From: an uncultured archaeon | GTDB lineage: Archaea; Iainarchaeota; Iainarchaeia; Iainarchaeales; 1-14-0-10-31-34 | DNA length: 64,000 nt | Assembly: GCA_964442255.1 (NCBI GenBank) | Contig: CAYTYC010000004.1 | Coordinates: 1,416 to 65,415, forward strand | Direction of reading: 5' to 3' | In this document: piece by piece, positions 11,122 to 60,915 of the stretch | Position numbering within the stretch: position 1 is the first letter of the stretch | How the letters are laid out: each line of letters opens with the position of its first letter | Notes under the pieces: model-generated | Told to the model about the DNA's origin: nothing | Database searches by the model: none | Seen by the model: the letters and a program-made list of their open reading frames with translations, nothing else | Program-made: the position numbers and the translations under genes

Positions 11122-11172
11122 TTGTCCTCATTAGATACCAAGCATGTATTGCTACCACTAAACTACCAGGGC
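11084..11172 (-). tRNA. tRNA-Thr (anticodon GGU) with a 16-nt intron at 37/38
   Basis: Reverse complement reads GCCCUGG-UA-GUUU-..-CAUGC-UUGGUA[UCUAAUGAGGACAACU]A-GCAUG-AGGUC-GCGGG-UUCGAUC-CCCGC-CCAGGGC-U. Discriminator is U73. Confidence 0.75.
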
Positions 11173-21471: not shown

Positions 21472-21536
21472 CTCCTATTTTAATTAAGTGGTTTTTTTTG
21501 GCGAGAAGGCATGAGCACGGCGGAAAAAAGTCTTCA

Positions 21537-22466: not shown

Positions 22467-22495
22467 TATTTGGCCCCTTTCCTGTTTATAAGCCT

Positions 22496-33957: not shown

Positions 33958-33985
33958 CAGTTTTCAACCCTTTTTTCCGGCTTAA

Positions 33986-41290: not shown

Positions 41291-41473
41291 TGGTTTTACC
41301 TCGCAGAGTGAAGACCGTATATATTGTTCTTTGGACTCTTTTTATTACTTTCTTTCATTATGCCGCAGACTTTAGTGAACCTTTTTTTTAACAAAAAGGG
41401 CCTGAGGACTGAATTGTTATAAATAGAGTTTTGCCATTTAAAAGCCTTTGCCTTTCTTTTTGGGTGTTGGCGG

Positions 41474-44400: not shown

Positions 44401-47400
44401 CAAACCCGTAGCGGTTTGTGAAGTAAACCTTGAGCATTGACGGAGTCCACGCCCTGTAATAAAGGTCGGATAACTCCCACCTGAACCTTAAAAGCTTTCC
44501 AATTGGGTCCACGTTGTCTTTAATGGATTTTTCCACGCTTTTCTGGTACTGCGTGGGGTCCTGAACTTTTATCAGGCTGAAAACCATTTCTTCGGTTGCC
44601 TGCCCGTTTGGCCCGATTTTTGTTCTCGGGGGCTCGTCTATTATCACGTTGTCCGCAATCAAGTACTCCTGAATTGTGGTCGGCGTTCTCCCTGCTGCAG
44701 AGACCCCTGCGCCTTCCCTGTAGCCGCGGTCGCTTAAATTGGATTCAAAGAAGCTCAAGCCTTCCACTTTAATTGGCCTGTCCCTCTTTAAAATAACCCC
44801 CTGGTTGAAGCACGTGTTTGTGATTATTCCCTGCTGCGGTTTCGGGAAAAGGCTGTTGAACTGAAAGGTTCTCCTGTTCAAGGTGATGCAGTCCGAGTAA
44901 TCCCGTATGTATTCTGACTGCACAAGGTAAAGCAGTGTGTCAATGTCTTTCTTGGTTTCCTCCGATGCAGCAAGCCCTGCCCTTATGTGCACAGGGTATT
45001 CCCCGAAAAAGTAAGCGGGCTGGACAGTGAATTCCGTTTCCTCTTTTGGCTCAAGCGTCCCTGAATCCGGGCTGACCATTAAATTTTCTGAATCCACTTC
45101 AATATCCACTGTTGCCCCGCAGTTGTTTATTGCCTTGAATTTTCCCTGGTTTGCCATTCCGTATCCGTGTAATCCGCTGTAAGCCGGATCCATGTATCCG
45201 CCGCCGTAAAAGGGCTGCTGGTATCCCCCGTAAGGGAAGCTTAACTGGTTCCAGTTGTTGTACAAAATGTCGCTGCTTCTTCCCGCGCTTCCAATTGAGG
45301 TGTTAGCGTAATAGGAGCTGGAATACCAGTCCGGGTTGTCCATGTTGCTTAACCTGTAAAAGTTGTTGTAAGAGTTTGGGTTCTGGTAGTATGCGCCTGT
45401 TGAAAGCGGATTGTATCCAAAATAGTTTTGGTGCATTCCGTAACCCAAATTGTATGGGCCGAATTCCAGCCTCTGCGAACCGATGGCGCGGATTTCCATG
45501 CATTCAAGTATGTCGTTTATTGAAACCTCTGCCTCAATCTCAGCCTTTATTTCCTGCAATCCCTGTTCTGTGGGGTTTGTTGCCTGCACAATAAGCCTTG
45601 CGGTTCCCTTTGCGCTCTTCAATACATCCGGGTCAAATGTGAAAGCAAGGCTTGTTTCACTGTTCGTGGGCAGTGACTCCGAGAGCCCCCTGAACTTTGA
45701 GGTTAAGTCAACGCGCCGGCTTCCCTGAATGTCCGCGTCCACGCTGAACTCTCCCACAGGGTTTTCGTTCCATAAAACTTTTGCCTGCAGGTTTTTGAGT
45801 GCAATGCTTTTTCCGTCAACAGAGCAGTTGTTTATGAGCACAATGCTTTGCCCCACTGTTTCTTTTCCGGTTAAAATATTCCATTTTTCTTTTGTCAGCA
45901 CCAAACACTCCAAATCATCCACTTCTCCCCCAAGGCCGATGAACACTTCAATTGGAACCTCTATGCTGAACGATTTTTCTGTTTCCTGGTTTGCAAGGTA
46001 TGCGAGGATTTTTCCTTTAACAGTCCTAACCTCATTTAACGCCTTTCCTTTCGGGCTTAAGCTCAACCCGAAAGCAATGCTGTAATCCAGGCCTTTCACT
46101 ATTTCAGCCCCAACGTATTGCTCCAACAGCCTGAACCTCAAATAGTCGGTGAAGTCCCCGGAAAACTCGATGGCTTCAATTGTCAGCGGCAAGTCCGTGA
46201 GGCTTCTCACCACAACATCCCTTTGCACTTCAAAGTCTTCAACCACGCTCAGGCTTTCCGTTATCTCTTCCGGAGTGAAGCTTAAAACATTCGGCTCCAG
46301 CTTAACAGTTTGCTCCACTGTTTTGTATCCGTTTTTTTCCGCTTTTATTGTAAGTTCCGCGCCGGGCTCAAGCCTTTCCAGCGTTAAAGTGTAAACGCCT
46401 TCACTGTCGCTTACTCCGCTGTAAGCCATTTCCCCGTTCACCTTGATGTCCACCCTCACCCCGGGAATCCCTTTTCCGCCGCTGTCCGTGAAGCGCAGGA
46501 TTACGTTGTTTTTAATGAACGGGACAACCATTAAGGGCAGCATTTCCAGTTCCATTTCCTTTACCGCTTCAACCTTTACCCTGAAGTTTTTGGAGAAAAC
46601 CCTGTTTTCCCCTCCCGCCCCGCTCGCAACAATCTGGAAGTTCAGGTTGTTTGTCCCTTCCTTCATGGTTTTAAAGTTTACCCATCCCTGCACGGTGTCG
46701 CCTTTGCTTATGTTCCCCATTGGAGCTGTTAGCTCAAACCTGTCCGCGTTTCCCGCGCTTTTCGCTGAGGTGACGTCTATGACCTCGTATTCCCCGAACT
46801 TCAGCCCCTCGTTTTCGGATTTTATTTCCAGTTTTGCGTCCGGGCTGTATTCTTCCCCCACGCTTGTCAGGCTGAATTTTAGCCGGTAGTTTCCGCTTAT
46901 TTCCGCGGGATAGCTTTCCACAACCGTTGTTTCGCTTCCTGTTTCAATGTTTGCCATGGTGAAGCTTGAGCAAAAGCTTTTTCCGCACAAATTGCTTGGG
47001 CCTAAAGTGTAAACCTCTGTTTTAACCCTTGCATAAAGCGCCTGTTTTTCGGAGTTTTCCTTTGAGGCGCCCAAAACAGAGTCCGACGGAAAGCGGAGAA
47101 CGCTTTCCCTTTCTCCCCACGCGCGGTAATGGATTTCAAGCTTTTCCCCGCTTCTTGCCGCGTCCCTTACCTGTATTTCCGCTTCAATCTCCATTATTCC
47201 TTCATCCACGTCCATCCACTTGATGTTAGCCCATTTCGCGCTTCCGCTTGTCGTGTGCTGGCTGTCAACCGCATGCCCTTTTGGGGGATTGTATGAAGTG
47301 CCTTTCAGGATTACTGCGTCCGATGCCGTGGCGCTTTTAATGTGCAGGGAATCCTTTTCGATTATGTTGTTTGTGTTGTCCGCGCTTTTTCCTGTGCGGA

Positions 47401-49336
47401 GGTGCACGCCCGCTTCATTGAACCCCGAGCCCTTTGGAACCCTTAACTCGAGTTTTGCGGTGTATTTTCCCCCGGCATCCAGGAAATCCTCAGCCTGCAG
47501 GTTGCCTAACCACAATCCTTTCCACACGGCCTCAAACCTTTCAACCGCGCCGCTTAAAATTATTTCCTTTTCCATTACCGCGTCGTCCACCGCCTTGAAG
47601 GGCAGTGTCCTGTATGTTACGTATTCGTCTCCGCCAACCAAAAGGTAAACCGTTTTGTCCGCCCTTATGGAAGTGATTTCCTTTTTTCCGGTGGAGTCTG
47701 TCACTCCCCTCAAATTTGACAGTTCTTCGTCCGTGGAAGCGTCAAACACTTTTACTGTGACTCCCTGCAGCGCTGTTCCGGACTCGTTTTTCACGTTCAC
47801 TCTCACTGTTCCGCGGCCGATGCTTAACTGCAGAGTAACCTGTTTTACTTCCCTTTCCCTGAGGCTTACTTCTTTGTTGTTTCCCTGAAAGCCGGGTTTT
47901 TCCGCGTACACGATGTATGCGCCCGGCTGCACGCCCTCAAACCTGGCTGTTCCGTCAAAGCCTGTTGTAAGGACTTCCCCGACCAACGCGAATTCGTCCG
48001 CGGTTTTAAGCATTACCTTCACGTTTTCAACGGCTTCACCCTCTTCGTCCACCACCTTGGCCTCGATTGCCTGCTTAACCCCTTCCGGAACCGGCGTCAG
48101 TTCAACTGTAACTTCATCGTATACTTTTAGCCCGGCCAGGGTTTCCTTGTAGTAGCCGATTGCGTCAATGCTTGCATTGAATTCCTTGTCGTCCGCAACC
48201 GGAAATTCAACGGATCCCAAGGAATTAGTGTAGCGTTCGGTGAATATTCCGTCCCCGCTTTCAAATATTACTTCCGCCCTTTCAATTGCTTTCCCTGTTT
48301 CGGCGTCCAGAACCCTTACAGTTATTTCGCCGTTTACTCCTGCCCCAAGCATTATTTTCGGGAAGTGCTGGTAAAGGTTTCCGACAACTATTTCAACGTA
48401 TTCCTGTCCTTCTTTTTCGGAGTTAAAGCTTGCGTAATCCTTTGCGTTGTACGCGAAAACCCAGTAGGTTCCCTGGGAAATGCCTTCAATGAAGCAGCCT
48501 CCGCTGTAGTCTGTTTCGCAGAACCCCACGGAAATGCTTCCCCCCCTTTTCCTCAGGTTAACCGTTATTCCTTCCAATGGGCTGTCGTTTTCGTCCACAA
48601 CGTAAAAGTCAATGCTTCCTTTTTCTTCCCGGATTTCTTCTTTCAGGTAAATTGCCGGATTTGAGTCCTCCAATCCATAAGAGCAGGTGCCTTCGCATTC
48701 AAAGCCCGCCGGCTTTGCTGTAATCTTTCCGCAGTCTTCGGGCACGTCTTCCAAAGTCATCTGCCCGTTTGTCGTGGAAAGCCTTTCAAAAAACCCTTCG
48801 TTTTGCGAGCACGAGAATTCCGCGGCAATATAGCCTGTGTAAAGGGTCTGCGTGTTTCCCTTGTAGACCCTGAAAACAATTGTTTTCAGGCCCACTGCCT
48901 TCAATTCCACCAGTGTTTCCGTTTCGCTTAACGTGACTGTTTTTTCGGAGTAGCCTGTTGCGCTTACCGTGGCTTTTGCCTGTTTTCCTGCTTCGGCTTC
49001 AAATTTGATTGTTCCTTCCGCGTTTGTTGCGCCGGATTCCTTCATTTTGCCTTCAACGTATAGCGTGACCTTTGCGCCGGAAACAGGGTCAGCGCTTTCG
49101 TCCACAACTTTTATGAGATAGCTTGCGTTGAATCCCGGCAAACCGAATCCGAAGAAAAGGAAATATATTCCCATTGCAATGAGAACCCACATTAAAATGA
49201 ATAAAGGAAAGCTTGGAATGTTGCGGGACTCAAAAACGTCTATGAGCTTGAATACAGGGATTCCTTTCTTGTCCAATGCATCCATTAATCCGTAGTATTT
49301 GTCTTCCAGCCCGCGGTAAAAGTCCTTCAAGCCCAT
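41474..49336 (-). CDS. Giant surface protein 3 (2620 aa): the same N-module plus TM, CarboxypepD_reg-like repeats, a Tyr/Gly/Asn-rich prion-like tract, and coiled segments
   Basis: N-terminus MGLKDFYRGLEDKYYGLMDALDKKGIPVFKLIDVFESRNIPSFPLF. ~100-aa tract GYGMHQNYFGYNPLSTGAYYQNPNSYNNFY..YGGYQQPFYGGGYMDPAYSGLHGYG. The C-terminal part is partly alignable with giants 1 and 2 (FCDGAQYAVS). Confidence 0.85.
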   Translation of the reverse strand: MGLKDFYRGLEDKYYGLMDALDKKGIPVFKLIDVFESRNIPSFPLFILMWVLIAMGIYFLFFGFGLPGFNASYLIKVVDESADPVSGAKVTLYVEGKMKESGATNAEGTIKFEAEAGKQAKATVSATGYSEKTVTLSETETLVELKAVGLKTIVFRVYKGNTQTLYTGYIAAEFSCSQNEGFFERLSTTNGQMTLEDVPEDCGKITAKPAGFECEGTCSYGLEDSNPAIYLKEEIREEKGSIDFYVVDENDSPLEGITVNLRKRGGSISVGFCETDYSGGCFIEGISQGTYWVFAYNAKDYASFNSEKEGQEYVEIVVGNLYQHFPKIMLGAGVNGEITVRVLDAETGKAIERAEVIFESGDGIFTERYTNSLGSVEFPVADDKEFNASIDAIGYYKETLAGLKVYDEVTVELTPVPEGVKQAIEAKVVDEEGEAVENVKVMLKTADEFALVGEVLTTGFDGTARFEGVQPGAYIVYAEKPGFQGNNKEVSLREREVKQVTLQLSIGRGTVRVNVKNESGTALQGVTVKVFDASTDEELSNLRGVTDSTGKKEITSIRADKTVYLLVGGDEYVTYRTLPFKAVDDAVMEKEIILSGAVERFEAVWKGLWLGNLQAEDFLDAGGKYTAKLELRVPKGSGFNEAGVHLRTGKSADNTNNIIEKDSLHIKSATASDAVILKGTSYNPPKGHAVDSQHTTSGSAKWANIKWMDVDEGIMEIEAEIQVRDAARSGEKLEIHYRAWGERESVLRFPSDSVLGASKENSEKQALYARVKTEVYTLGPSNLCGKSFCSSFTMANIETGSETTVVESYPAEISGNYRLKFSLTSVGEEYSPDAKLEIKSENEGLKFGEYEVIDVTSAKSAGNADRFELTAPMGNISKGDTVQGWVNFKTMKEGTNNLNFQIVASGAGGENRVFSKNFRVKVEAVKEMELEMLPLMVVPFIKNNVILRFTDSGGKGIPGVRVDIKVNGEMAYSGVSDSEGVYTLTLERLEPGAELTIKAEKNGYKTVEQTVKLEPNVLSFTPEEITESLSVVEDFEVQRDVVVRSLTDLPLTIEAIEFSGDFTDYLRFRLLEQYVGAEIVKGLDYSIAFGLSLSPKGKALNEVRTVKGKILAYLANQETEKSFSIEVPIEVFIGLGGEVDDLECLVLTKEKWNILTGKETVGQSIVLINNCSVDGKSIALKNLQAKVLWNENPVGEFSVDADIQGSRRVDLTSKFRGLSESLPTNSETSLAFTFDPDVLKSAKGTARLIVQATNPTEQGLQEIKAEIEAEVSINDILECMEIRAIGSQRLEFGPYNLGYGMHQNYFGYNPLSTGAYYQNPNSYNNFYRLSNMDNPDWYSSSYYANTSIGSAGRSSDILYNNWNQLSFPYGGYQQPFYGGGYMDPAYSGLHGYGMANQGKFKAINNCGATVDIEVDSENLMVSPDSGTLEPKEETEFTVQPAYFFGEYPVHIRAGLAASEETKKDIDTLLYLVQSEYIRDYSDCITLNRRTFQFNSLFPKPQQGIITNTCFNQGVILKRDRPIKVEGLSFFESNLSDRGYREGAGVSAAGRTPTTIQEYLIADNVIIDEPPRTKIGPNGQATEEMVFSLIKVQDPTQYQKSVEKSIKDNVDPIGKLLRFRWELSDLYYRAWTPSMLKVYFTNRYGFEDYVPFRITVEDLWELASGLSGRVYYGNPDVSPEECIRNRFEFELGFTIDEYYFDGGTFKWKPSPPVLITERDAEKCGQQDRLRIWGQKAFEKDNIRVSFEEVDGGKNIELMVKKLGKTKGDMVGFEGSLHVKVIRPNPARVADVIMPFKVNVKGDGEGPGEWEDKTQDCYERVLDEANKRLDEIEGKADEIMKKLKECELPEEEKEKVRETVEEELGGLTPEERQAKIELLKQELREKIAGCEKEGAETGSGVITKYGFDRLLFEWDYGDLETLGKNICDSSVNENAMFCDGAQYAVSLDQKAKTIKEFTEKVENNDCIEDEWSETKVCEKNSNNLYRFAAAQKAITDDDPEGGRTQLAFFLDGETGRILRQPKPLRPSELEGVLDTEFAEAVLATAGDMPEEADATVERASRLLSEMKSAPAVDHLDIVAEVNTKGFTGDEIKTLKDLGAEQITGKYYVLTFNEFKAMHDRLENAMEDDRAACADWRSTPTTTYPPSGCCDALKENATVCRIAIIVEDDGKIAKAIDTPIAAQFLQKLYKGTSFKLGTRNKDFGEKEEEMKNEIIKKGKKVSGITTDEIDRLYNENITVNSYLMHEAYTKSLFGDFASTYKNIGGLGAPDTTLNGKNVEKLPPKEINAGEYKVNVNYLWGKAEEDKRKFEITFERLNLLKDIEGMEEYVKNFLFEMPFDGKVDGRFSSTPASSILPVTIYDYGVFTDNADSGAPEVELMDGAPLKTGVGGVMHFRVEFPQSLEETKTGTLLRIEKYGGTGGSGLIKYTPSNPVNIKAELEGGEKGKGFYYEITDISGHKVGEELEPMVEWLSAEGQFEDRIRNMAELCAGATEERHSVVISTEKSTGTTGLLALAFVPMKGQLKFSVLCSQGRAEASIVDFFNKNPREITHPGGTQPKEAVLSNANLSGETIKAMIDRIKNELVCFEPLDVRDGYATGLELSWNKEKVSTELKALLAKLEASK

Positions 49337-49443: not shown

Positions 49444-51318
49444 TTAATTTGGGTTTTCGTTGGGTGAACAGCCTCCCGGGCCCATATCTCCTATGTTTGC
49501 AGTTTCAAATAGGGAATAACAGGTCCACCCTTGGTTCGCATTGCATGCGGCTGTCGGGTTGTCTTTTGCGTCTTTGTCTAATGCGCAGGTGCCTGTATCC
49601 ACCCTTGCATAATAGTTTGGGTTGAATGGCTCAAATGTGTCCTTAAGCCTTATGTTGTATGCTACCCCTGTTTCGGCTTTATTTTTGTTGACAATATATT
49701 TTGGGTTTTTTTCCACAAACCTGAGGTTAACGGTTATCCTGTCCAGCTCTTCGCAGAATGCCTTCGGCTGATTTGTGAACCCTGTGCACTTAAATTCCGT
49801 TATATTTGGGTGGGTTATTTTGTCGTCTTCAGTGAGGAAAACCCCGACATCCTTATTGTAGGGGGTCATCGGACAGCCTGCATTTGTTTTGCCGTAGGGG
49901 TAATTTATGTTAAGGTAGTTTCCTTGCGTGGAGGGGGCCTGGGCTAAACTTATTTCAGAAGTGCTGACACTGTTTCCAGCCTGCTTAATTACTTTTGAGG
50001 GGGTTTGGTCAGTGGAAATGCTTATGCCGTAAAGAGGGCAGTTTTCCAGATATTCGTTCACGCCTGCTGCAAGTATGTCCCCCCCATTTATTTCCGTTCC
50101 GTTTCTTCCAATTAAAATATATCCGTCATCCTTGTCCGCGTTAAGGTATTCTCCCGTGTTATAATTTTCCACCGCAAGGTTGCAAAGCCTTCGCACAACC
50201 ATTTGTTTGATTGCATCCTCGGTAAGCATTGTGTCTGGCTCAAGGTTTCCTTGCACTTGGCTGAAAGACGCCTTGTCGCCTGGAAAGTAATAAAGGAAAA
50301 AATTCCCCACAATATCGCACATTCCAAGCGCTTTTAGTTCCTGGGTGCATGTTATGCCTGCTTGCATTATCTCTTCTGAGGGCGTGGTGGCAAACCTTTG
50401 GTCTCCCGGGCAGTATGCTCCGCTGCCTATTTCCTTTTCACTTGAGCTCAGGTAAGGGTGTTCGCGCCACCTGCAGCTGTCTATATCGCACAAGCCTAAA
50501 CGCATTTCCTCAAGTTCATTGTGAATGCGCGGGGAAAAAATTCCGTAGTTTTGTTTCCAAAGCGTGCCGGTTTCCCTGTTGTGCTCTATTGCCAGCGCCC
50601 TTGCCTCCGCAAACGCCTTGAATATTCTTACAGGCACGTAGATGCGCAGGTTTGTTCTCGGCATTATCGGCTCTTCTATCACCCGGTTTGTGCGAGTGTT
50701 TGTTACCTTTATTTTTGGGAACGCGTAATAGTCTTCAGCGCTCAGGTTTCTGGGATTCAGGTTAATGTAAAAGGTCCCAATGCATTTTTTGGGGTCGCCG
50801 TCTTCGCATCCCACGACCTCAATGAAGCTTTCTTTTGATTTGAGCATTTTATTCAATACTTCTTGAACTTTTCCCCTTTCCGCCTGGGTTGTTCCGGTAA
50901 GCTCTATCTGGAAAACCCCCACCTGCCTTTTGTACTGGTATCCTTTCACCAGCTCTTGGCTGAGAAAATATGTTAACGCCTGGGTGCTTTCATCTTTTTC
51001 GTTTTTCAGGCCAAAAAAAAAGGTTCTCGTGAACTGTTCCACCAATTCATCCCATGTGAGTTCCTGGAACGCAAAGCTTGCCCCGTTTGTGCTGAGCCAG
51101 TCCTCTATTTCAAACCTGACCTGGTAGTTGAAGAGCTGGATTGCGTCCGCCCTTGTCAAGTCCACGATTGCCTGCATTTCGCTTTGCTCTTCAATGTCTG
51201 AAATCAGCGCAAGCTTGTCTGCCTCCGCTTTCACCATGCTTTGCACAACGACAACACTCAAAACAATCAGCACAAAAGCCACCAATGCGGTGAACAAGGT
51301 GAAGGCTTTTTCTTTCAT
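49444..51318 (-). CDS. Large (624 aa) pilin-like protein with an archaeal class III (prepilin) signal peptide; Cys-rich globular body
   Basis: N-terminus MKEKA|FTLFTALVAFVLIVLSVVVV: a K-A at -2/-1 followed by a ~20-aa hydrophobic stretch, as in PibD/FlaK substrates. At least 8 Cys pairs. Embedded between giants 3 and 4. Confidence 0.6.
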   Translation of the reverse strand: MKEKAFTLFTALVAFVLIVLSVVVVQSMVKAEADKLALISDIEEQSEMQAIVDLTRADAIQLFNYQVRFEIEDWLSTNGASFAFQELTWDELVEQFTRTFFFGLKNEKDESTQALTYFLSQELVKGYQYKRQVGVFQIELTGTTQAERGKVQEVLNKMLKSKESFIEVVGCEDGDPKKCIGTFYINLNPRNLSAEDYYAFPKIKVTNTRTNRVIEEPIMPRTNLRIYVPVRIFKAFAEARALAIEHNRETGTLWKQNYGIFSPRIHNELEEMRLGLCDIDSCRWREHPYLSSSEKEIGSGAYCPGDQRFATTPSEEIMQAGITCTQELKALGMCDIVGNFFLYYFPGDKASFSQVQGNLEPDTMLTEDAIKQMVVRRLCNLAVENYNTGEYLNADKDDGYILIGRNGTEINGGDILAAGVNEYLENCPLYGISISTDQTPSKVIKQAGNSVSTSEISLAQAPSTQGNYLNINYPYGKTNAGCPMTPYNKDVGVFLTEDDKITHPNITEFKCTGFTNQPKAFCEELDRITVNLRFVEKNPKYIVNKNKAETGVAYNIRLKDTFEPFNPNYYARVDTGTCALDKDAKDNPTAACNANQGWTCYSLFETANIGDMGPGGCSPNENPN

Positions 51319-51333
51319 CAGCTAAAACCTTTC

Positions 51334-54300
51334 CTAAGAGACTGCGCCTTCAATTGATTTGCCCTCGTTTTTGGCAATGCTGCCCATTTTGCTTAACACT
51401 GTTGTGGAGTATTCTATTGCGGCGTTTTTGATGATTTTGCATTTTTCTATTGCCCCTGTGCCCCCGTGGTATGCCCCTATCGCCAATGCAAGGGGGTCGT
51501 CGCAGCCCTTTATGTCATCTTGCTGCAGCAGGTGCTTCACAATATCTGTTCCGACTTCAATGTTTACGGTCTCATCAAACCACAATTCTTTTGGAATTGC
51601 CTTGCCTTTTCCTTTGTAGTTTACCCTTGCAGGAAATGTCTTAACTCCCGGAACTTCAATTATCATTGTGCCTGTGTCACGGTAGCCGTAAGTGTCTTCC
51701 CCGTCTTTTGCGTACTTTTTGACTGAAGGCAGGCTTGTGTCGTTGAACCAGTAAGGCATTATCTGCATTAACCCCGTTGCCCCTGTTTCCGTGTTTACCG
51801 CAAACCTGTTTCCGCTGCTTTCGGTTTCAATAATGCTTTTAATCAAGTCCTCGCTTACTCCCGCGGCCTTTGACGCGCTTTTGGTTTTCGCATCCTGGCT
51901 TGAGGTTGTCCTGTTTATTTCCATTTCCTTTGCTTCAAATTCGTTCCCGCACTTGTCCAGCCTGTTGCTTGTGCTTTGGATTTCGTCACTGCTTGTCACC
52001 AGCCAGAACTGCAGGCACTTGTCTTTTCCTTCCAGATGCCTTACCCCGTAAGTGAAGTTTTTCTGGAACTCGAATTCTTTGGCTGTAAGCTCAACCGGCA
52101 CTCCGTTTATGGTTTGCAGCCCGGTTGGTTCGCAGTATCCTCCCGGGCTTTGCACTCCTTCCGCGCCCCAATACCATTTGAATGCCTCGTATCCCGCGGC
52201 TTCTCCCGCCGCCAGGCACCCGAATCCGCGGATGAATCTTGAAAGGTTTGGGTGGTTTGCCCAGAGCCTTCTCCACCTGCTCACTTCCGCGGCTTCTCCC
52301 CGCACAATCCATTTCTTGCTTTTTCCGACCTTTTTTGCTACGTCTTCAAGCCCGTCTGCCGCTGTTGTGTAGTTCCTGTTTCCAACCTGGTCCGTGACTG
52401 TTTTCATGGACTTCCTGATGCTTTTTTCCCCGTCCATGTTTGTGTGGTCCAAAATTTCCTTGAGCTCGCTTGCCTCCCTGTTCAGGTTGCTTATCACCGC
52501 GTTCCTTGCGTCATCCACTGCAACCGTTCCAACCAAGTCCCCTTCCTTCAGCAAGCCTTTTTTTACCAGGTCGTCTACAACCCCTTGGTGGGCTCTTGAA
52601 GCGTTTTTAAGCCTTCCCGCTTCGTCCACCAGGTTGTCGTACTGGGTTTGCATTTGGGGGCTGATTGCCTGCCTCCCCCTCCCTTGGGTTAAGTTATCCA
52701 TCTGTGTTTTTAGGGCTGCTTCCTGTTTTTCAAGGGATTCAAGGCCTATTCCTGTGTTGTCAATCAGGGTGAATTTTCCCCCCGCATCCGCTGTTATATT
52801 CATGTACTGTCTTCCGGTTACCGGGTCGGTGAAACCGCCAAGCTTGGCGTTAATCCCTGACGCCACTTTTGCCCCGCCCTGCAGGCTTTCAAGCCTGCCT
52901 TTGATTGCGTCTTTGGCAAACTCTGACGGCGCCAGAACCTGGTCAACGCCAGGGCGAATTGTTTTCCATGCCTGCCTTGTGCCCCCTGTGGCCAGGCTGG
53001 TTGAAACCATGTCTTCAATGATTTCTTTTCCCGTGTCATCCAAATTTCCCACCAAAAAGTCAGGCAGCCAGGAGTTCCCTCCCTCGGCTTTAACCGCTTC
53101 ATCAAGTATGAGCTTTTCCTCCCCTTTAACGAAGTTAACCAAATCCTTTATCTTGCCCCACGTGAAGTCCACGATTTTGTCAAAGCTCAAGTCAACGTTC
53201 AAGTATTCTTTAATCAGGCCTACCGCTACAGGCGGCCCGCAGGTGAGCAGCAGGCAGTCCACAACCGCGCCCGGAATAAACCCCAGCTTTGTAATTACGG
53301 CGCACCCTCCGCAGCCCACAAAGCATCCTGCACCCCATGCGGCTATGGACGTCACCCTTTTGCTGCTCTCCGCCTTAATGAGTTCGCTTTTCGGGTCAGT
53401 TAATTTGTTTTTCCTTAACTGCGAGTACACGTCAGCCAAGTTTACCTTGTCGTCCCCGCCGTCCCACACAAGTGTCGCGTAATAAGGCTCTTCTCCCACA
53501 GGAGTCTTGTATGCTTCCTCCAAAAACTCTAATGGAGTCAAACCGCACAGCATTAAGTCTATTTCCCTGAATTCTTCCATTGAATAAGGTCCATGCAGGT
53601 CCTCTGCCTTCAATTTAATGCTTTTTTCGGTTGCCTCCTGGAAGTCCGCCCCTCCCCTGATGCACAACTGGAAGTGATAATAGTAGCGCTTGCTTGCCTT
53701 GTCAAACTTTGCCAAATTAACCGTAAAATCGCGGTCTGTTTCAGTCAGCCTGAATGCAGGCTTTTCGCCTTTCCTTTCATATTCCCAGACAATTTTTTCC
53801 CCTGTTTTGGCTTCCTCGCCTTCCTTCGGCGCCTCTGTTTTTTCCGCAGTTTTTGCAGTTGTCTTAACCTGTTTTGCGCTTGCATCCCACACTTCAATGT
53901 ACTCCAGCCCAGGAATTTTCGCGCTGTCTTCATCAAACACCAAGTCAAATTCCCCTGAGGAAAGGTTTGACAGCACTCCATTAACGCAGGTTTCCTGCAT
54001 TGAAACCTGCATGCTTCCCGGAACCTCCAAACGCGGAACAAATTCTTCAACCCTTTCTGCGCTGCTTACAACAAAAAAGCTTTCATCCCTTGAAATGCAC
54101 GCATCACCCAGCTTTGAATTCCATAGGTTTCCCAGAATTCTTGCGGTTTCCTCTATCAGCTTGTCTTCCCCGCCTTCAACGCTTTCCGAGGCTTCAACTG
54201 ATTTCCTGCTTACCGTGACATACACTTTTTTCGGGTTTTCAGCCGAAAAACCCGGCTTCACTTCAATCTTCATCAGCCCGTTGAAGGGCACTTCCCCCAA

Positions 54301-57300
54301 CTCCAGTTCAACCGTGTTTCTGCTTCCCCCCCCGCCGAGCCGGCCCTCGCTTTTTCCGAAAAGCTTTTCCGCAAACTTTTCCTCAAATTTTTTGGTTGAA
54401 GAATCTTTTCCGTCAACCATTGTCAGCCAGCTTTCGTATGCGGACTCTGAATTGTATTTTTTGTCCAAAGGCAAAAAGTTCGGGGCATTCTGCGCAACGC
54501 TCTTGCATTCAGGGGTTTCATCGGCGTCAACCAGCCTGAACACGACAACAATTGATTCGGTGTCCAGCCTGTCTCCTTCAACCCCCACCGCGCCTGTTGT
54601 CGTCAGCTTGTATCTTCCGCATCCCGCCAAATCCCCGGGAATGTAAATCCTGCTCAAAAGCCCGATTCCTGCAACCCCAAAATCGCCTTCCCCGTACCTT
54701 ACATCAAAGTTTTCAAACTCGCTTGACTTTAAATCGTCGATTTCTTTTTTCAGCATTTCCCTGCTCAAATTGTCGTGCGAAAGGAAAACCTCCAGGCTGT
54801 CTGCCTGAATGTTCATTGACTCAAACGTGCAGTAGCCCTGCCTTGGGTCGCAGCCCTGAACATTTAATGTGGTGTTTGCGAGTTCGGTTACCCTTCTCTT
54901 TGCCTGCACTATCTTGTCTTTTGCCTTCTTTGCGATGTAACCCGCCATTCCCTGCGCGTCACAGTATCCTTCATGGCAGTCTGTTGAAAGCTTGGGGAAG
55001 CTTATTTTTTTTGTTTCAGAGTCCCGGTCCTCGCATATTGGCACCTCTATTTCAGGCATTGCCCTGCATTTTCCGCCGGAACAGCTTGTCGCGCTTTCCC
55101 CCACCTTCAATGAAATGTTCACGGGCTCTGATTTAATGAGTTCGCGTGTCACCTGCCCTACTCCCAGAACGGAAACAGGCCTGCTTACGTCAATGCTTTC
55201 TGAAGGGTAAACAGTTAATTCGAAATCGTCCCTGCCTGTCTGGGGCGGCAGCACTTCCCCGTCCGGGTAAATTTCAATGTAATTGTTTCCAATGTACTTG
55301 GGCTCCATTTCCCCTATCACAACGGGTTCCTGGCAAAAGTTTTTGATGCTAACAAAGCGGGTGATTGCCTCAAACGACTTTTTTGTGTCTGTCTCAAAAT
55401 TCAATGGCTCCCCGGGAAGGGTTTGAAGGGAGAGGCAGTGCCAGTCCGACACATGGAAGTAAACCGGAACGCTCCAAAGGTTTGTGTAGTGCCTGCCCTC
55501 AATGTTTCCGTTTATAACAAGGTTTCCGAGATGGGTTGAGCTTTTTTCAGTGTTTGCTGTTGCCACAACGTATGCGGGGGGAATGGATTGCCCTTTTTTC
55601 AGCAAAGGAAACTCGTTCCTTGGCTCTATTTTGACGTCCACTCCCGGAATGTGCTGCTCCAATGCCATTGTAATCTCTGAAACATCCGCGTTTCCGCGGT
55701 TTGAAATGAACAGCATTGCCCTGCCTATCCCTGTTTTTTGCCTTTGGCTTTGAGTAATCCATATGTGCAGGTTGTCGGGCACAAACAACGCAATCTTTGG
55801 GTTCCATAAAATGATTTTCAGGGGAATGCTTTTACTTATCTGCGGGCTTTTAAAGAACACATCATAGTTGTACTGCTGCTGGAGGTCAAACATCGTGGGG
55901 AAAGTGCTCACCAGCTCCAAACTGTACTGGTGGGGTTTTCCGTCCGCCTCCAAACGGAAGGTTCCAGCGTAAACCTCAACCCCCGGCGCCTCTTTTCCTT
56001 TTGGAAGGGCTTCCGGGGAAAAATTCAATGGAACCCCGCAATTGTTTTTCATCAGGATGTCCAAAGTTTTCCGGTTTCCCTCCGCCCCGACCAGGTAAGC
56101 CTGGAGTTCGCTTGAGTCAAACTCCAAACAGCTTTCCTTGAGCCTTTGATTGTAGTTAACCTTTACCCTTGTTTTTGCGGCTACAACGTATTCCCCGTTC
56201 ACGAGCCCCGTGAATTCAACGTCTGCCTCGCCGTGCACTATTTTTTCCTCGTTTCCCGTGTATTCCGCGGTGAACCCAATTTTTCCTGTTTCCCTTGGGC
56301 CTAATTCCGCCGGGGGAAGCGCGCTTAAAATGAGTTCATCCGGCCAGTTTTTCGCGGGAACCACTTCAGCCGCAATCCCGCTCACCGGAAGGGTTAAGGT
56401 GTTCCTTATTGTTTCCTCAATTCTCACAACCTTTTCCCCGAAAGGCATGTTCAACAAAATTTTTTCCTCAATCTTTAATCCTTCTTTTGCCCCGACCATG
56501 AACCCTTTTTCCACGGGCCTGAATCCCGGTGCCTCAATTCTTGCGGCGTATTTTCCGGGTTCCAGTGAATTCTTGAACCTGTACACCCCGTCCCTTCCGT
56601 TTCCGGTTGAGCCGTCCCCAAGCATTTCCGCAGCGGTTTCCCCGTCAGCCGAAATTATCCGGATTTTCGCGTTTTCCACCGGCCTTCCAAGGGAATCCTT
56701 AAGCGTTATTTTGATTTCTTCTCCCGCATTCACGAAATCCTCCAGCTCAATGTCCAGTTCCGCTTCCCTGAACACAGCGAAAAACAATTCATCTTCAATG
56801 CCTTCGTTTCCTAATTTGGCTTCGCTTCTGATGAAGGCCTCCCCTTCCTTTATTCCCTTGAAATAGAATCTCGCGGTTTTAGGGGTTCCCCGTGAAAGCG
56901 AAATGTTGTTTGCGGTGAGCGCCTGCAAAGGGTTTTCGTTGTCCGCAAAATTGGATGCGCCTGAAAGGCTGTAGGAAGTGAAAACAACTTTTGGCACGGA
57001 GTCAGATGTTGAAACCCTCAAATTGACTGAAAGGTTTTCCGCTGCCACCATTTCCGCTTCAAGCGCGTACACTTCGCCCAAGCCCGCGGAAAACTCTTTT
57101 TCCCCGAACCTTCCGCCTTCTTTTGTCAAAAACATGTGGGTTATGCACAGTTTTTCCTTGCACAACGGCTCGGACTCAAACACGCTTACTTTTTCTGAAA
57201 TTGTTTCCGCATACAACGCGGATTTTTCCCTGCTTACTTTTTCGCTTCCCAGCACCTGGTCTTCGGGAGTCCGGGCAGTTAGGCCGTTGAATTCCGCCCA

Positions 57301-59529
57301 CGTGCGGTAGTTTACTTCAAAGCTCTCTTCCCCAAAGCCTTCCCTTGCCTTCACCCTTGCCCTCACAATTTTTGTTCCGCCCGGGTTTTCAAAGTAAAGC
57401 TCCAGAAACTTGCTGAATTCCCCTGCTTCTCCCTCGTTTCTCCTGTCAATGGACTCGTTTCCGGGCGAAGGAAAGGGCTGGTATGTCTGGCCGAAGAAAA
57501 AGTTGTCCGCAACCGCGTCAAATCCCGTCACTCCAACCGTGTCGGATTCAATGTAAGGGACCGTGTCGTTTCCCACGCGCACATGCATTCCGCCTTTGTA
57601 TTCGCCTTCAATCCACTGCGTTTCAAATTCAAGGTAATAGTCTTTTCCTTTCACTATTCCTTTCACTTCGTTTCCGTCCTCGTCCAGTATCCTTGCAAGC
57701 CTTATCTTCGGCTTTAATTCAAGGTGCTGTTCTTTGTTCAATTCCATTTCCAGTTCCCTGTTTTTCCCTATCTGCCTTAATTCCGAGTGCGTTGTCCCGT
57801 CGGGCAGCGAAACCTCCACCACCGCCTCATTGTAGCCTATTGAGTCAAACACAACTGACCCCTCTTCGATTGGGCCGTCAAACAATACTGTGCCGTCTTT
57901 TGCGCTGACCAAAACGTTTCCGTCTTCAATCACATTCCCGTTTTCGTCCTTCAACACCAGCGTTTTCACGGTGTCAGGCACCTTTAACTGGATTATCAGC
58001 TCATTCAGTTCCGGTTCAATTGTTTTCTGCGCCTCCCCTTTTTCCAGTTTCCAGAACCCTTTTACCCTGATGTTTTTTCCTGCTTCCATGGTGGTTTCAT
58101 GGCTTCCGTCCAGCCCTGTGCTCGCAATTCCCAGGCCCAAGGGAAACTCTTCCTGTTCTTCCCCTTTTAGTTCATAGAACTGCAGGGTTGCATTCACCGC
58201 GGGCTTTTGCCCGGAGGTTATGGCGTGCACAATCAGTTCAGCCGAATTTTCAATTGTCGCCTTTTTCAATTCAATGTCCGCGCTTTCCTGCGCCAACGGA
58301 ATCACTTCAATCACTTTTGGAAGGTAGCCTTCCTTCACGGCGCCGATGAAGTATTTTTCGTTGACGTTCAGTCCCCCGAATTCCACGAAGCCCCCGAAGC
58401 CGGTTTCCTTTGTTTCCAGCACCTTGTTTTCCAAGCCGTAAAGAGTCACTTCCGCGGAGTGCAAAAGGGTTTTTGTGTCTTCGTCCATTACTGCGACAGT
58501 AAATTGTTCTCCGCCTTTTTCCAGGAAAATTTCTTTCACTGTTTCCTCTCCGCGCAATGTAACAAACTCTTCCTCTGAATCCTCGTATCTCACATACCCG
58601 TCCTTTTCAACACTTACCATTACCACTGTGCCTTTTTTCAGGTAACTTGAATAGATTCCGTCGTCGTCTTCCTCCGATTCATCCAGTTTCTTGAAGCTTT
58701 CCCCGTCAAAAATTCTGATGTTTGCGCCTTCCACCAGGCTTTTTGTTTCCGAGTCAAACACTTTTACTATCAAATTGGTTTCGCCCTGGAGTTCCGCGGG
58801 TTTCGGCGCAAGGGAAATTGTCCTTAACTCCGTTGACTCAAAGCGGATTTTCTGGCTTAAATCCTCATACGAATCGGCGGTGACCTCAACCAGTATTTCC
58901 TCTTTTTTAGGCAGGTTCACCAGTTCCGCGATTCCGTCTCCTCCGCTTACCGCGTTCCTTACCTCGGCCTTCCAGCTTGCCGTCACCAAAACGCCTTCAA
59001 TTGCCGTGTCTTTTTCCGAGTCAATGAACCGCAGCTTTCCGTTGATGTAGCCGGTTTCCATTCTTTCAAGGAAAAGGTTTGCGGTTACGTTCACCGAATC
59101 CAGGTCAAGCAGTTCCGAGTCTTTTTTAAATCCCTCTTTTTCCGCTTCCACGGTTACAGTGCTTCCGATTGGAATTCCTTCAAGCAGTATCGCTCCGCCG
59201 TTTGACCCGGGTTCAGGGCCGTAAATGGTTTTCCCGGTTTCGTTTTTCACGGAAACCATCGCCCCGCTAAGCCCTTTTCCTTCGTCGTCCACGATGTTCA
59301 TCGCGATTGAAACGTTTGCCGCCGCAAAATTAAAGTAAAAAAACCCAAGCAAAATGAACAGGATTATCGCAATCAATGCGATGAACACAGGGAAAAAGGG
59401 AATTCCGCGGTTCTCGAACAGGTCAACGATTTTGTATACCGGCAATCCCTTGTCGTCCAGGAAATCCATTCCCGCATAGAATTTGTCCTCTATTTTTGCG
59501 TACACTTCCGCAAGCTTGCCTGAAATCAA
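51334..59529 (-). CDS. Giant surface protein 4 (2731 aa): the same N-module plus TM, CarboxypepD_reg-like repeats, coiled region, and a C-terminal family-1 lytic transglycosylase (SLT/GH23) domain; TTG start
   Basis: N-terminus (TTG)ISGKLAEVYAKIEDKFYAGMDFLDDKGLPVYKIVDLFENRGIPFFPVF plus TM. C-terminus ..ETESSGNRFAVNTETGATGLMQIMPYW...AIGAYHGGTG matches the SLT catalytic motif (ES..N..A.S..GA.GLMQIMP...AYNAG). Confidence 0.85.
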   Translation of the reverse strand: MISGKLAEVYAKIEDKFYAGMDFLDDKGLPVYKIVDLFENRGIPFFPVFIALIAIILFILLGFFYFNFAAANVSIAMNIVDDEGKGLSGAMVSVKNETGKTIYGPEPGSNGGAILLEGIPIGSTVTVEAEKEGFKKDSELLDLDSVNVTANLFLERMETGYINGKLRFIDSEKDTAIEGVLVTASWKAEVRNAVSGGDGIAELVNLPKKEEILVEVTADSYEDLSQKIRFESTELRTISLAPKPAELQGETNLIVKVFDSETKSLVEGANIRIFDGESFKKLDESEEDDDGIYSSYLKKGTVVMVSVEKDGYVRYEDSEEEFVTLRGEETVKEIFLEKGGEQFTVAVMDEDTKTLLHSAEVTLYGLENKVLETKETGFGGFVEFGGLNVNEKYFIGAVKEGYLPKVIEVIPLAQESADIELKKATIENSAELIVHAITSGQKPAVNATLQFYELKGEEQEEFPLGLGIASTGLDGSHETTMEAGKNIRVKGFWKLEKGEAQKTIEPELNELIIQLKVPDTVKTLVLKDENGNVIEDGNVLVSAKDGTVLFDGPIEEGSVVFDSIGYNEAVVEVSLPDGTTHSELRQIGKNRELEMELNKEQHLELKPKIRLARILDEDGNEVKGIVKGKDYYLEFETQWIEGEYKGGMHVRVGNDTVPYIESDTVGVTGFDAVADNFFFGQTYQPFPSPGNESIDRRNEGEAGEFSKFLELYFENPGGTKIVRARVKAREGFGEESFEVNYRTWAEFNGLTARTPEDQVLGSEKVSREKSALYAETISEKVSVFESEPLCKEKLCITHMFLTKEGGRFGEKEFSAGLGEVYALEAEMVAAENLSVNLRVSTSDSVPKVVFTSYSLSGASNFADNENPLQALTANNISLSRGTPKTARFYFKGIKEGEAFIRSEAKLGNEGIEDELFFAVFREAELDIELEDFVNAGEEIKITLKDSLGRPVENAKIRIISADGETAAEMLGDGSTGNGRDGVYRFKNSLEPGKYAARIEAPGFRPVEKGFMVGAKEGLKIEEKILLNMPFGEKVVRIEETIRNTLTLPVSGIAAEVVPAKNWPDELILSALPPAELGPRETGKIGFTAEYTGNEEKIVHGEADVEFTGLVNGEYVVAAKTRVKVNYNQRLKESCLEFDSSELQAYLVGAEGNRKTLDILMKNNCGVPLNFSPEALPKGKEAPGVEVYAGTFRLEADGKPHQYSLELVSTFPTMFDLQQQYNYDVFFKSPQISKSIPLKIILWNPKIALFVPDNLHIWITQSQRQKTGIGRAMLFISNRGNADVSEITMALEQHIPGVDVKIEPRNEFPLLKKGQSIPPAYVVATANTEKSSTHLGNLVINGNIEGRHYTNLWSVPVYFHVSDWHCLSLQTLPGEPLNFETDTKKSFEAITRFVSIKNFCQEPVVIGEMEPKYIGNNYIEIYPDGEVLPPQTGRDDFELTVYPSESIDVSRPVSVLGVGQVTRELIKSEPVNISLKVGESATSCSGGKCRAMPEIEVPICEDRDSETKKISFPKLSTDCHEGYCDAQGMAGYIAKKAKDKIVQAKRRVTELANTTLNVQGCDPRQGYCTFESMNIQADSLEVFLSHDNLSREMLKKEIDDLKSSEFENFDVRYGEGDFGVAGIGLLSRIYIPGDLAGCGRYKLTTTGAVGVEGDRLDTESIVVVFRLVDADETPECKSVAQNAPNFLPLDKKYNSESAYESWLTMVDGKDSSTKKFEEKFAEKLFGKSEGRLGGGGSRNTVELELGEVPFNGLMKIEVKPGFSAENPKKVYVTVSRKSVEASESVEGGEDKLIEETARILGNLWNSKLGDACISRDESFFVVSSAERVEEFVPRLEVPGSMQVSMQETCVNGVLSNLSSGEFDLVFDEDSAKIPGLEYIEVWDASAKQVKTTAKTAEKTEAPKEGEEAKTGEKIVWEYERKGEKPAFRLTETDRDFTVNLAKFDKASKRYYYHFQLCIRGGADFQEATEKSIKLKAEDLHGPYSMEEFREIDLMLCGLTPLEFLEEAYKTPVGEEPYYATLVWDGGDDKVNLADVYSQLRKNKLTDPKSELIKAESSKRVTSIAAWGAGCFVGCGGCAVITKLGFIPGAVVDCLLLTCGPPVAVGLIKEYLNVDLSFDKIVDFTWGKIKDLVNFVKGEEKLILDEAVKAEGGNSWLPDFLVGNLDDTGKEIIEDMVSTSLATGGTRQAWKTIRPGVDQVLAPSEFAKDAIKGRLESLQGGAKVASGINAKLGGFTDPVTGRQYMNITADAGGKFTLIDNTGIGLESLEKQEAALKTQMDNLTQGRGRQAISPQMQTQYDNLVDEAGRLKNASRAHQGVVDDLVKKGLLKEGDLVGTVAVDDARNAVISNLNREASELKEILDHTNMDGEKSIRKSMKTVTDQVGNRNYTTAADGLEDVAKKVGKSKKWIVRGEAAEVSRWRRLWANHPNLSRFIRGFGCLAAGEAAGYEAFKWYWGAEGVQSPGGYCEPTGLQTINGVPVELTAKEFEFQKNFTYGVRHLEGKDKCLQFWLVTSSDEIQSTSNRLDKCGNEFEAKEMEINRTTSSQDAKTKSASKAAGVSEDLIKSIIETESSGNRFAVNTETGATGLMQIMPYWFNDTSLPSVKKYAKDGEDTYGYRDTGTMIIEVPGVKTFPARVNYKGKGKAIPKELWFDETVNIEVGTDIVKHLLQQDDIKGCDDPLALAIGAYHGGTGAIEKCKIIKNAAIEYSTTVLSKMGSIAKNEGKSIEGAVS
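51337..51870 (-). other. SLT (soluble lytic transglycosylase, GH23) catalytic domain at the C-terminus of giant protein 4
   Basis: E-S catalytic dyad context ..IIETESSGNRF.., the GLMQIMP motif, and the downstream AYHGG motif. Confidence 0.75.
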
Positions 59530-60339: not shown

Positions 60340-60915
60340 TTAAGCCTTTTGGCTTCCATTAATTCCGCGCCTGCGCTTGCGCGGCTTTTTAACCTTTTTC
60401 ACTCCGGCGGCAAGCCAGTACCATGCCCCATAAAACCCCGCAATAACAACAATCAGTGAAACCCTGAACAAAACATCGTGCGTGAAAACCGCTGTCTCAA
60501 CACTTGAATTAATTAAAATATTTATGCTCACAACAATCCTGGCCAAATTAAAAATGTTGACTCCAACAAACGCCGCAACAGCCCCGTACAGTTTTTTTCT
60601 CCATGAAATAAATGGAGTCGCAGCAATTGCGGAAACCAAAACAACCAACTCCAAAATTCCTGTGCACAATTCCCCTATTTCCACCTTAAAATCCCGGAAA
60701 TCAATCAGCACAGGCTCTGCCGCAGAGGCAATTGTGCCGTGCGCCCCAAACAAATTCATCAAAAAAATCACGGCTTGTGCAACCGCAAGCTCGCTCCACT
60801 CCAGCGGAACAACAAAATAGAAAATTCCGTACAGTACGGCAAAAACCGCCATGAGAAAAACCAAAAACTTTGCCCCGCGGAGCACTTCTTCTTTGCTGAA
60901 ATCCATTTTCACCAC
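60340..60915 (-). CDS. Small archaeosortase/exosortase-family membrane protein
   Basis: 191 aa with ~5 TM helices. Cys in a TM helix within EIGELCTGILEL (the C-[ST]-G motif), conserved Arg (NLARIV), and a basic C-terminal tail. Confidence 0.5.
   Translation of the reverse strand: MVKMDFSKEEVLRGAKFLVFLMAVFAVLYGIFYFVVPLEWSELAVAQAVIFLMNLFGAHGTIASAAEPVLIDFRDFKVEIGELCTGILELVVLVSAIAATPFISWRKKLYGAVAAFVGVNIFNLARIVVSINILINSSVETAVFTHDVLFRVSLIVVIAGFYGAWYWLAAGVKKVKKPRKRRRGINGSQKA

Follow-up and report, generated by a model that had tools for sequence, protein, structure and literature searches.

The stretch of DNA analysed here, 64,000 nucleotides of contig CAYTYC010000004.1 from an uncultured archaeon (hereafter the window), carries on its minus strand a cluster of four paralogous giant genes beside a type IV pilus locus. 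One of the encoded proteins, giant 4 (G4), ends in a lytic transglycosylase domain of the GH23/SLT type whose active-site residues are conserved; a Pfam scan and an SLT hidden Markov model (HMM) detected no such domain in the paralogs G1, G2, and G3. The open reading frame (ORF) assigned to G4 agrees with the deposited annotation, since a protein in an NCBI-derived collection (P0001) is identical to its translation except for a literal L at the TTG start codon. The 86-residue ORFs on the plus strand over the SLT-encoding stretch are assumed to be shadow ORFs.

Profile searches assigned the C-terminal part of G4 to the lytic transglycosylases. The Pfam model SLT (PF01464) matched residues 2551–2601 with 45.6 bits (gathering cut-off 21.3, E = 5.9e-12), and the NCBIfam models of MltC and EmtA matched the same stretch, far under their equivalog cut-offs. 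The best match in the PDB by phmmer was E. coli MltC (4c5f, E = 6.8e-7), which aligned in two segments. In the first segment, E2570 of G4 lies over the catalytic glutamate of MltC (glutamine in the inactive variant 4cfo), and in the second, AYHGGTG lies over AYNGGAG. E2570 and S2571 form the Glu-Ser pair of motif I, and the glutamate column is invariant in alignments A1 and A4. An alignment of G4 with 51 bacterial SLT proteins from the profile search contained 19 invariant columns, and G4 has the shared residue in all 19: E2570, S2571, GAxGLMQxMP, N2656, G2660, LA, AY, G2690, and Y2707. The last of these, located in IEYSTTVL, is the tyrosine of motif IV and is likewise invariant in A4. The HMM built from the 52 sequences gave an envelope of residues 2518–2727 on G4, although the score of G4 against this model is not independent evidence because G4 sits in the alignment.

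Structure prediction led to the same assignment. An AlphaFold model of the domain, built on the 52-sequence alignment, had a mean predicted local distance difference test score (pLDDT) of 78.6 and a predicted template-modelling score (pTM) of 0.79. The top 36 Foldseek matches of this model in the PDB comprised only lytic transglycosylases and g-type lysozymes (best E = 1.5e-5, TM-score about 0.56–0.59); the PDB matches included MltC, Slt, MltE, Slt70, MltF, g-type lysozymes, and phiKZ gp144. The best fold matches in BFVD were virion-associated or tail transglycosylases, a tape-measure protein was among the PDB sequence matches of G4, and the best matches in the profile search were Bacillales-type SLT proteins of about 200 residues. 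All residues invariant across the 52 SLT sequences are kept in G4 and also in P0002, a divergent metagenomic relative described below, which argues for retained catalysis; the domain is apparently catalytically competent.

A preliminary description of this DNA, prepared from its sequence, had placed an SLT domain with a conserved catalytic glutamate at the end of G4. Both the domain, by profile and by fold, and the position of the glutamate over that of MltC bear this out. The two peptides quoted at that time were found in the translation of the ORF at 51334–59529 (minus strand), IETESSGNRFAVNTETGATGLMQIMPYW at residues 2567–2594 and AIGAYHGGTG at residues 2683–2692. The interval given then was 51337–51870, whereas the domain extends over about 51349–51978, with the upper end 70–110 nucleotides further. 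The features of the locus are collected in Table 1.

Table 1. Features of the G4 locus in the order of transcription of the giants, in window positions (residue numbers are those of G4)
Feature	Position	Strand	Evidence or remark
PilB/FlaI-like ATPase of type II/IV secretion, transcribed divergently from the G4 operon and truncated at the 3' end of the window	62450..64000	+	Pfam T2SSE, 31 bits (cut-off 24.9)
Exosortase/archaeosortase-family membrane protein, upstream of G4	60340..60915	-	NCBIfam TIGR04178, 38.4 bits (cut-off 23)
Giant 4 (G4), 2731 residues, TTG start	51334..59529	-	ORF list and translation
Conserved leader of about 42 residues and transmembrane helix (residues 43–66)	59332..59529	-	Kyte-Doolittle maximum 3.05
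Body (residues 67–2061)	53347..59331	-	CarboxypepD_reg and other Ig-like beta-sandwich matches; Cys-rich region about residues 1480–2060
Gly/Cys/Ala-rich, moderately hydrophobic segment (residues 2062–2106; 45 residues)	53212..53346	-	Conserved DCxxP motif
Variable linker (residues 2107–2430; about 320 residues)	52240..53211	-	Aligns with fragment P0002 only
Amphipathic Gly-rich helix (residues 2431–2456); presumed small beta domain and RLDKC junction (residues 2457–2529)	51943..52239	-	
GH23/SLT lytic transglycosylase domain (residues 2518–2727)	51349..51978	-	Pfam, MltC alignment, HMM envelope, AlphaFold, Foldseek
Codon of the predicted catalytic glutamate E2570 (motif I, T-E-S)	51820..51822	-	MltC alignment; invariant in A1 and A4
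Motif II, GLMQIMP (residues 2586–2592)	51754..51774	-	G, L, M, Q, M, and P columns invariant
Insertion of about 57 residues (2593–2649) between motif II and the DxxxNI helix	51583..51753	-	
Motif III, AYHGGTG (residues 2686–2692)	51454..51474	-	A, Y, and G invariant; the usual Asn is His
624-residue protein directly downstream of G4 (15-nucleotide gap), pilin-like class III N-terminus MKEKA/FTLFTALVAF	49444..51318	-	
Paralogous giants G3 (41474–49336), G2 (33986–41290), and G1 (26596–33957)	26596..49336	-	BLASTP
Far end of the syntenic block: PolB (19027–21471), 168-residue ORF, and HerA/DUF87-like protein of 499 residues (22496–23995)	19027..23995	-	

The organism is a DPANN archaeon of the Iainarchaeota and no methanogen, as judged from the identity of its family B DNA polymerase (PolB), the gene content of the window, and the annotation of one G4 orthologue. 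PolB is 50–58% identical to those of metagenome-assembled genomes (MAGs) of Iainarchaeota/Diapherotrites, among them the complete AR10 genome and that of Ca. Iainarchaeum andersonii, and the G4 orthologue P0138 is annotated as Candidatus Iainarchaeum. Besides PolB, the window carries HisRS, TrkAH, RpiA, MetAP, and tRNAs, one of which probably contains an intron, and is chromosomal and archaeal. The archaeal, non-methanogenic host suggested earlier was therefore correct, and pseudomurein remodelling in a methanogen, which had been mentioned as an alternative, is ruled out by this lineage.

The N-terminal membrane anchor that had been proposed for G4 was found as one strong transmembrane (TM) helix at residues 43–66, the sole strongly hydrophobic helix of the protein. 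The leader of about 42 residues preceding it contains two KG[IL]P repeats and is conserved in G1–G4 and all orthologues. In all giants, the pattern Y..LEDK(F/W)Y..LD.L(D/E).KG(I/L)PVY...D..E.(K/R)GIP stands directly before the TM helix. The [KR]G ahead of the hydrophobic stretch resembles a class III (prepilin peptidase) site; in G4 it reads RG/IPFFPVF (the slash marks the site) after 42 residues, an unusually long leader for a class III signal. Alternatively, the leader might be the target of the adjoining archaeosortase-like protein, since a C-terminal sorting signal of the archaeosortase type was found in none of the giants. The Pfam scan of the body gave CarboxypepD_reg with 76.6 bits and weaker matches to Big_1, bMG3, and SdrD_B. 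Beyond Ig-like domains, searches of Pfam, NCBIfam, and the PDB yielded nothing for the body and Cys-rich region of G4, the C-terminal thirds of G1–G3, or the 624-residue protein downstream of G4. G4 contains 30 cysteines, mostly closely spaced, and 21 N-glycosylation sequons, compared to about 15 expected. The single TM helix, the Ig-like and CarboxypepD_reg domains, the cysteines, and the sequons together point to a location at the cell surface.

The last quarter of G4 is less simple. The Gly/Cys/Ala-rich segment at residues 2062–2106 has a hydropathy of 1.65–1.94, borderline for a TM helix, and may form either a hairpin that inserts into membranes or a buried core. A similar Gly/Cys/Ala-rich segment of borderline hydrophobicity occurs at residues 1558–1610 of G1, deep within an otherwise extracellular giant. 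The linker that follows in G4 is apparently helical or coiled-coil, and a small beta domain is presumed to precede the SLT domain; by inspection, the pattern of helix, beta domain, and RLDKC junction recurs in P0002, in the orthologues P0135–P0138, and in the giant of locus L069. A stalk with an enzyme at its tip, as envisaged in the preliminary description, is accordingly a fair first approximation: the C-terminal position of the enzyme stands, and the plain stalk does not. Because the last quarter is not a plain stalk, the distal placement of the tip is something that we infer.

Searches with the first 2042 residues of G4 recovered four full-length orthologues (P0135–P0138; 2446–3391 residues), which are 26–31% identical to G4 over about 2100 residues. 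The body has only five relatives, of which at least one is annotated as Iainarchaeum, and the others that could be placed lie in the same type of locus. In BLAST alignments, the homology of G4 to the orthologues stops at about residues 2102–2139, just past the DCxxP segment. Four states of the tip were observed after the conserved junction, namely none, type A, type B, and SLT, on bodies that are 26–31% identical; no sharp boundary between near-identical and unrelated sequence was seen among the G4-type giants. P0135 and P0138 end at once after the junction, one unrecognised type of tip is common to P0136 (about residues 2670–2832) and the L069 giant, and a second type occurs in P0137, to which the L070 giant seemingly corresponds, as judged by inspection of its last 800 residues. 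These two tips, of about 150–165 residues, matched no family and begin with a helix similar to the one (KYGVD..LI) that opens SLT domains. The idea that the tips of P0136/L069 and P0137 are degenerate lysozyme-like domains (NYGVPESLV..., ALKAYNKSPN) was dropped as unsupported, since the SLT HMM and hhalign were negative (probabilities 1–2%). A single-sequence AlphaFold model of the P0136 tip had a pLDDT of 33.8.

The SLT tip itself recurs in one relative. An exhaustive HMMER search of 1.84 billion representatives with the C-terminal 688 residues of G4 gave 14 significant matches, among which P0002 (E = 8.8e-47) was the only true relative and no other giant was found. P0002 is a fragment at the edge of a metagenomic contig (L073) that has the same module with the SLT domain at the same locus position; it is 31% identical to G4 across the C-terminal module, and the GC contents are 40% versus 47%. 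The recurrence of the SLT tip in this divergent protein, with the same downstream gene, indicates that the tip is retained and is no recent accident. The SLT domain of G4 is thus an accessory tip kept across substantial divergence. Scans of metagenomes and viruses with an alignment of the C-terminal module (A2) found no relative, and a metagenome scan with an alignment of the Cys-rich region (A5) found four loci, none of which (0/4) has an SLT domain. A word-indexed search with the C-terminal 288 residues found nothing at E <= 1e-3, because the E-values are scaled to 5.8 billion sequences.

SLT domains are recurrent in the Iainarchaeota, as seen from P0002, from P0009, and from an ORF end in locus L007. 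P0009 (L072, 8001–9854), an SLT protein of 617 residues, has a TM helix at its N-terminus and a middle part rich in cysteine; its context is archaeal housekeeping (GatD/GatE, ATP-dependent DNA ligase, and ProRS), and its contig has syntenic genes in common with an Iainarchaeota-like MAG. The insertion in the SLT domain, which the AlphaFold model predicts as a beta hairpin with low pLDDT, is common to G4 and P0002 and present in a shorter form in P0009, and the signature MP[YP][HW]F[CN]xxxxP[ST]V follows motif II in all three. The signature points to a shared lineage of archaeal SLT domains as a possible source of the giant's tip. In addition, the last approximately 560 nucleotides of L007, from another Iainarchaeum MAG, encode on the minus strand, about 10 kb downstream of PolB, the SLT-like end of another ORF (ILTESNGNWQAVSKTGALGITQIMP ... 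GYYRGGPN), which is cut by the edge of the locus.

The giants belong to a block that is syntenic across Iainarchaeota genomes. In the window (26596–64000) and in the loci L064, L066, and L067, the order is the T2SSE ATPase, the archaeosortase-like gene, the G4-type giant, a pilin-like protein of 475–624 residues, two or three further giants, a 238-residue coiled-coil protein, the HerA/DUF87-like ATPase, the 168-residue ORF, and PolB. The ATPase of the window is 74–82% identical to those beside the G4 orthologues, where the genes after it encode a platform-sized protein and several pilins bearing [KR]GQxF class III signals. The 624-residue protein has a weak match to the pilin ComGF and a KA/FTLFTAL site before its hydrophobic helix; its orthologues (475–624 residues) come after every G4-type giant, and the L073 copy is 42% identical. 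At the far end, the DUF87-like gene adjoins PolB in 27 related loci, with G1–G3-like giants upstream; its product yielded nothing further in searches of Pfam, NCBIfam, and the PDB. Large adhesin-like proteins are known in archaeal type IV pilus loci (PMC4858521); no published description of the giant cluster was found in the literature searched. The archaeosortase-like gene occupies an equal position in L064, L066, and L067. Between this gene and the start of G4, the window also carries a toxin-antitoxin pair of an MNT nucleotidyltransferase (104 residues) and a HEPN protein (117 residues) at 59648–60294 on the minus strand, which is missing from that position in three orthologous loci.

We consider it moderately probable, and the best reading of these observations, that G4 serves the contact-dependent cleavage of a bacterial wall for attachment, breaching, or feeding. 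G4 would be anchored by its N-terminal TM helix in the archaeal membrane, be largely extracellular, and form part of the phylum-wide cluster of giant surface proteins beside the type IV pilus locus. The GH23/SLT lytic transglycosylase would be a gain of the C-terminal module in this lineage; on contact, it would locally cut the bonds between N-acetylmuramic acid and N-acetylglucosamine in the peptidoglycan of a neighbouring bacterium, which would assist the archaeon in gripping, breaching, or feeding on the wall. To our knowledge, archaea make no murein. Pseudomurein has beta-1,3 bonds to N-acetyltalosaminuronic acid, and we know of no lysozyme-type enzyme that cleaves them. Since the producer has no murein and pseudomurein bonds resist such enzymes, bacterial murein is the likeliest substrate.

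Several observations weigh against this reading. The SLT tip was present in none of the recovered full-length orthologues (P0135–P0138 and the L069 giant), so that it is dispensable for the core function of the giant. Motif III reads AYHGG instead of AYNxG, although at least 90% of the 52 aligned SLT sequences have asparagine at this position and P0002 retains it (YNGG). The Pfam match spans just the first half of the SLT model, a limitation that arises because the 57-residue insertion splits the domain. No peptidoglycan-binding domain (LysM, SPOR, or PG_binding) was found in G4 by the Pfam scan, and the hydrophobic segment at residues 2062–2106 makes the topology of the last 650 residues uncertain. 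Furthermore, no bacterial host is known, the activity is deduced from the sequence and a model, and a free-living way of life has been argued for the Iainarchaeota (discussed in PMC6642349).

Other explanations were weighed against the same evidence. The domain could act as a non-specific antibacterial weapon, or as a scavenging enzyme that is tethered to keep its products near the cell and releases peptides and amino sugars from bacterial walls or necromass; neither use would involve a specific host or attachment. Bacteria are killed by archaeal peptidoglycan hydrolases in the absence of any symbiosis (PMC12352652), the Iainarchaeota have larger genomes and have been considered free-living (PMC6642349), and the SLT-like ORF end in L007 together with the stand-alone P0009/L072 suggests a general tool instead of a dedicated adhesin. 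However, a 200-residue enzyme ending a 2500-residue anchored protein beside pilus genes fits action on contact better, and no genes for muropeptide uptake or recycling were seen within the 64-kb window; we regard this explanation as unlikely, though with an appreciable chance of being right. A penetration or translocation module, in which the C-terminal 650 or so residues work as the tape-measure or ejection proteins of phages do, or as VirB1 of the type IV secretion system (T4SS) does together with a channel, appears distinctly improbable. VirB1 is a secretion-system transglycosylase; in G4, the SLT domain would open the wall, the hydrophobic segments would enter the target membrane, and the type IV pilus machinery would deploy the giant. 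Such a module would account for the hydrophobic segment with DCxxP in all G4-type orthologues, for the tape-measure, internal-core, and PRD1 P7 transglycosylases among the PDB and BFVD matches, for the T2SSE ATPase with pilins and the HerA/DUF87-like ATPase flanking the cluster, and for the variation of the tip among orthologues (none, two unknown types, and SLT). Against it, the hydropathy of the segments (1.3–1.9) is borderline for TM helices, housekeeping bacterial enzymes match the fold at least as well as the phage proteins do, the DUF87 match lies below the Pfam cut-off, and the variable tip may be old divergence, given that the orthologues are 26–31% identical.

The substrate may also be a glycan other than murein (chitin-like material, surface glycans of the producer, or the pseudomurein of an archaeal host), acted on or simply bound, or the domain may be a dead lectin. 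Both g-type lysozymes and at least one chitinase belong to GH23, MltE was crystallised with chitopentaose (4hjy, among the Foldseek matches), and motif III carries a change from asparagine to histidine. Nevertheless, the conservation of every residue invariant in the 52 SLT sequences, including the Glu-Ser pair and GLMQ, both in G4 and in P0002, the resistance of pseudomurein bonds to lysozyme-type enzymes, and the non-methanogenic lineage make this very improbable. SLT is normally bacterial and its best profile matches here were the small Bacillales-type proteins, as might be expected if a bacterial gene or a chimeric assembly had been joined to the archaeal contig. This artefact is effectively refuted: the SLT domain is in frame with a body that has orthologues in Iainarchaeota-type loci alone, all with the same order of genes, the independent metagenome contig L073 has the same fusion and the same downstream gene, and the GC and GC3 (third codon position) values are 0.46/0.52 in the SLT part versus 0.49/0.56 in the rest of the gene.

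An extension of the contact-dependent reading is also conceivable. The cluster may encode a pilus-associated contact apparatus directed against bacteria, in which the G4-type giant would provide a shaft of about 2100 residues, the Gly/Cys segment would insert into membranes, and the tip would be an exchangeable effector; we consider this doubtful. If true, the apparatus would be an archaeal counterpart of the CdiA/Rhs-type polymorphic effectors or of phage tape-measure proteins. Unlike CdiA- or Rhs-like polymorphic toxins, the G4-type giants have no tip-specific immunity gene directly after them, and the same pilin-like gene for 475–624 residues lies downstream whatever the tip. Immunity to the SLT domain would be needless because the archaeon has no murein.

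Giant proteins of this kind are already known from other DPANN archaea. Large extracellular murein lytic transglycosylases (fam00969) of Woesearchaeota and Pacearchaeota have been proposed to mediate attachment to bacterial walls (Castelle et al. 2021, PMC8204110), a paper that cites Rinke 2013 and Castelle 2015 for earlier observations. A predatory role was argued for Woesearchaeota, which have a "large" GH23 lytic transglycosylase (Vigneron et al. 2022, PMC9723730); peptidoglycan-degradation genes were reported in that study in Woesearchaeota MAGs only, though its set held three Diapherotrites MAGs (PMC9723730). Further surveys repeat the point about murein lytic transglycosylases in DPANN (PMC10936187, PMC11537232). 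Like fam00969 and its relatives, G4 occurs in DPANN, falls in the class of about 2000–3000 residues, is predicted to be extracellular, and carries a GH23/SLT domain with the same proposed role at the wall. In contrast to fam00969, which is described as specific to Woesearchaeota and Pacearchaeota, G4 is found in the Iainarchaeota, its SLT domain is an accessory tip that the recovered full-length orthologues lack, and it lies in a giant cluster linked to type IV pilus genes. Since no other giant was among the 14 significant matches to the C-terminal 688 residues, G4 may have no homology to fam00969 outside the SLT domain, in which case its fusion would have arisen independently.

With the bacterial family-1 lytic transglycosylases (MltC, MltE, Slt70, P. 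aeruginosa Slt, and small Bacillales SLT proteins), G4 shares the E-S, GLMQ, and AY(N)xG motifs, the C-terminal tyrosine, and the fold. Those enzymes remodel the wall of their own producer and are periplasmic proteins or lipoproteins of 180–650 residues, whereas the producer of G4 has no murein; its SLT domain also differs in the 57-residue insertion, the replacement of asparagine by histidine in motif III, and the 2500-residue archaeal fusion. The transglycosylases of virions and secretion systems (PRD1 P7, tape-measure proteins, internal core proteins, tail lysins, and VirB1 of the T4SS) resemble G4 in arrangement: in them, an SLT domain ends a long delivery structure and opens a foreign wall locally, as that of G4 would do. 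Unlike virion and T4SS systems, the G4 locus is chromosomal with phylum-wide synteny, and no phage or T4SS genes lie around it.

The SPEARE proteins of Nanohaloarchaeota, of 3000–8500 residues, are mostly extracytoplasmic and membrane-anchored and have been proposed to act in attachment to and invasion of the partner (Hamm et al. 2019, PMC6642349). Like G4, they are giant, anchored proteins of DPANN archaea; they join adhesion domains to enzymatic or toxin modules, and their genomes also carry type IV pilus-like genes. The domains of SPEARE are different (serine protease, laminin-G, BC-toxin-like, and restriction endonuclease), its host is an archaeon, and our searches detected no sequence relationship to G4. 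Experiments have demonstrated the killing of bacteria by archaeal peptidoglycan hydrolases (Strock et al. 2025, PMC12352652), and the SLT domain of G4 would likewise be an archaeal enzyme directed at a polymer found only in bacteria. The former are small, secreted proteins in which a recognised peptidoglycan-binding domain accompanies an amidase- or glucosaminidase-type domain, whereas G4 is anchored to the cell and has no recognised domain of that kind; for these two reasons, it would escape the criteria of that survey.

Giant murein lytic transglycosylases have been known in other DPANN archaea since 2013, and the general hypothesis was published more than 10 years ago; G4 accordingly poses no new question and is a fresh example of a known phenomenon. 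What is new is the lineage, a scaffold with no detected relation to other SLT giants, the pilus-linked syntenic cluster, and the optional tip. The finding extends murein-cutting giants from the Woesearchaeota and Pacearchaeota to the Iainarchaeota, a phylum often treated as free-living, and hints that at least some Iainarchaeota physically engage bacteria. The defined setting of four giants beside a type IV pilus locus, with an optional SLT tip, offers a testable handle on partner contact in DPANN.

Two further observations were made at the other end of the window. A tRNA of 92 nucleotides at 6642–6733 (minus strand) was detected with Rfam (60.6 bits) and missed by ARAGORN, probably because it is an archaeal tRNA with an intron. 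A 343-residue ORF with a LAGLIDADG_3 domain at 10090–11121 (plus strand), whose 3' end overlaps a tRNA-Ser gene (11084–11172, minus strand), may be the remnant of a homing endonuclease or a free-standing endonuclease.

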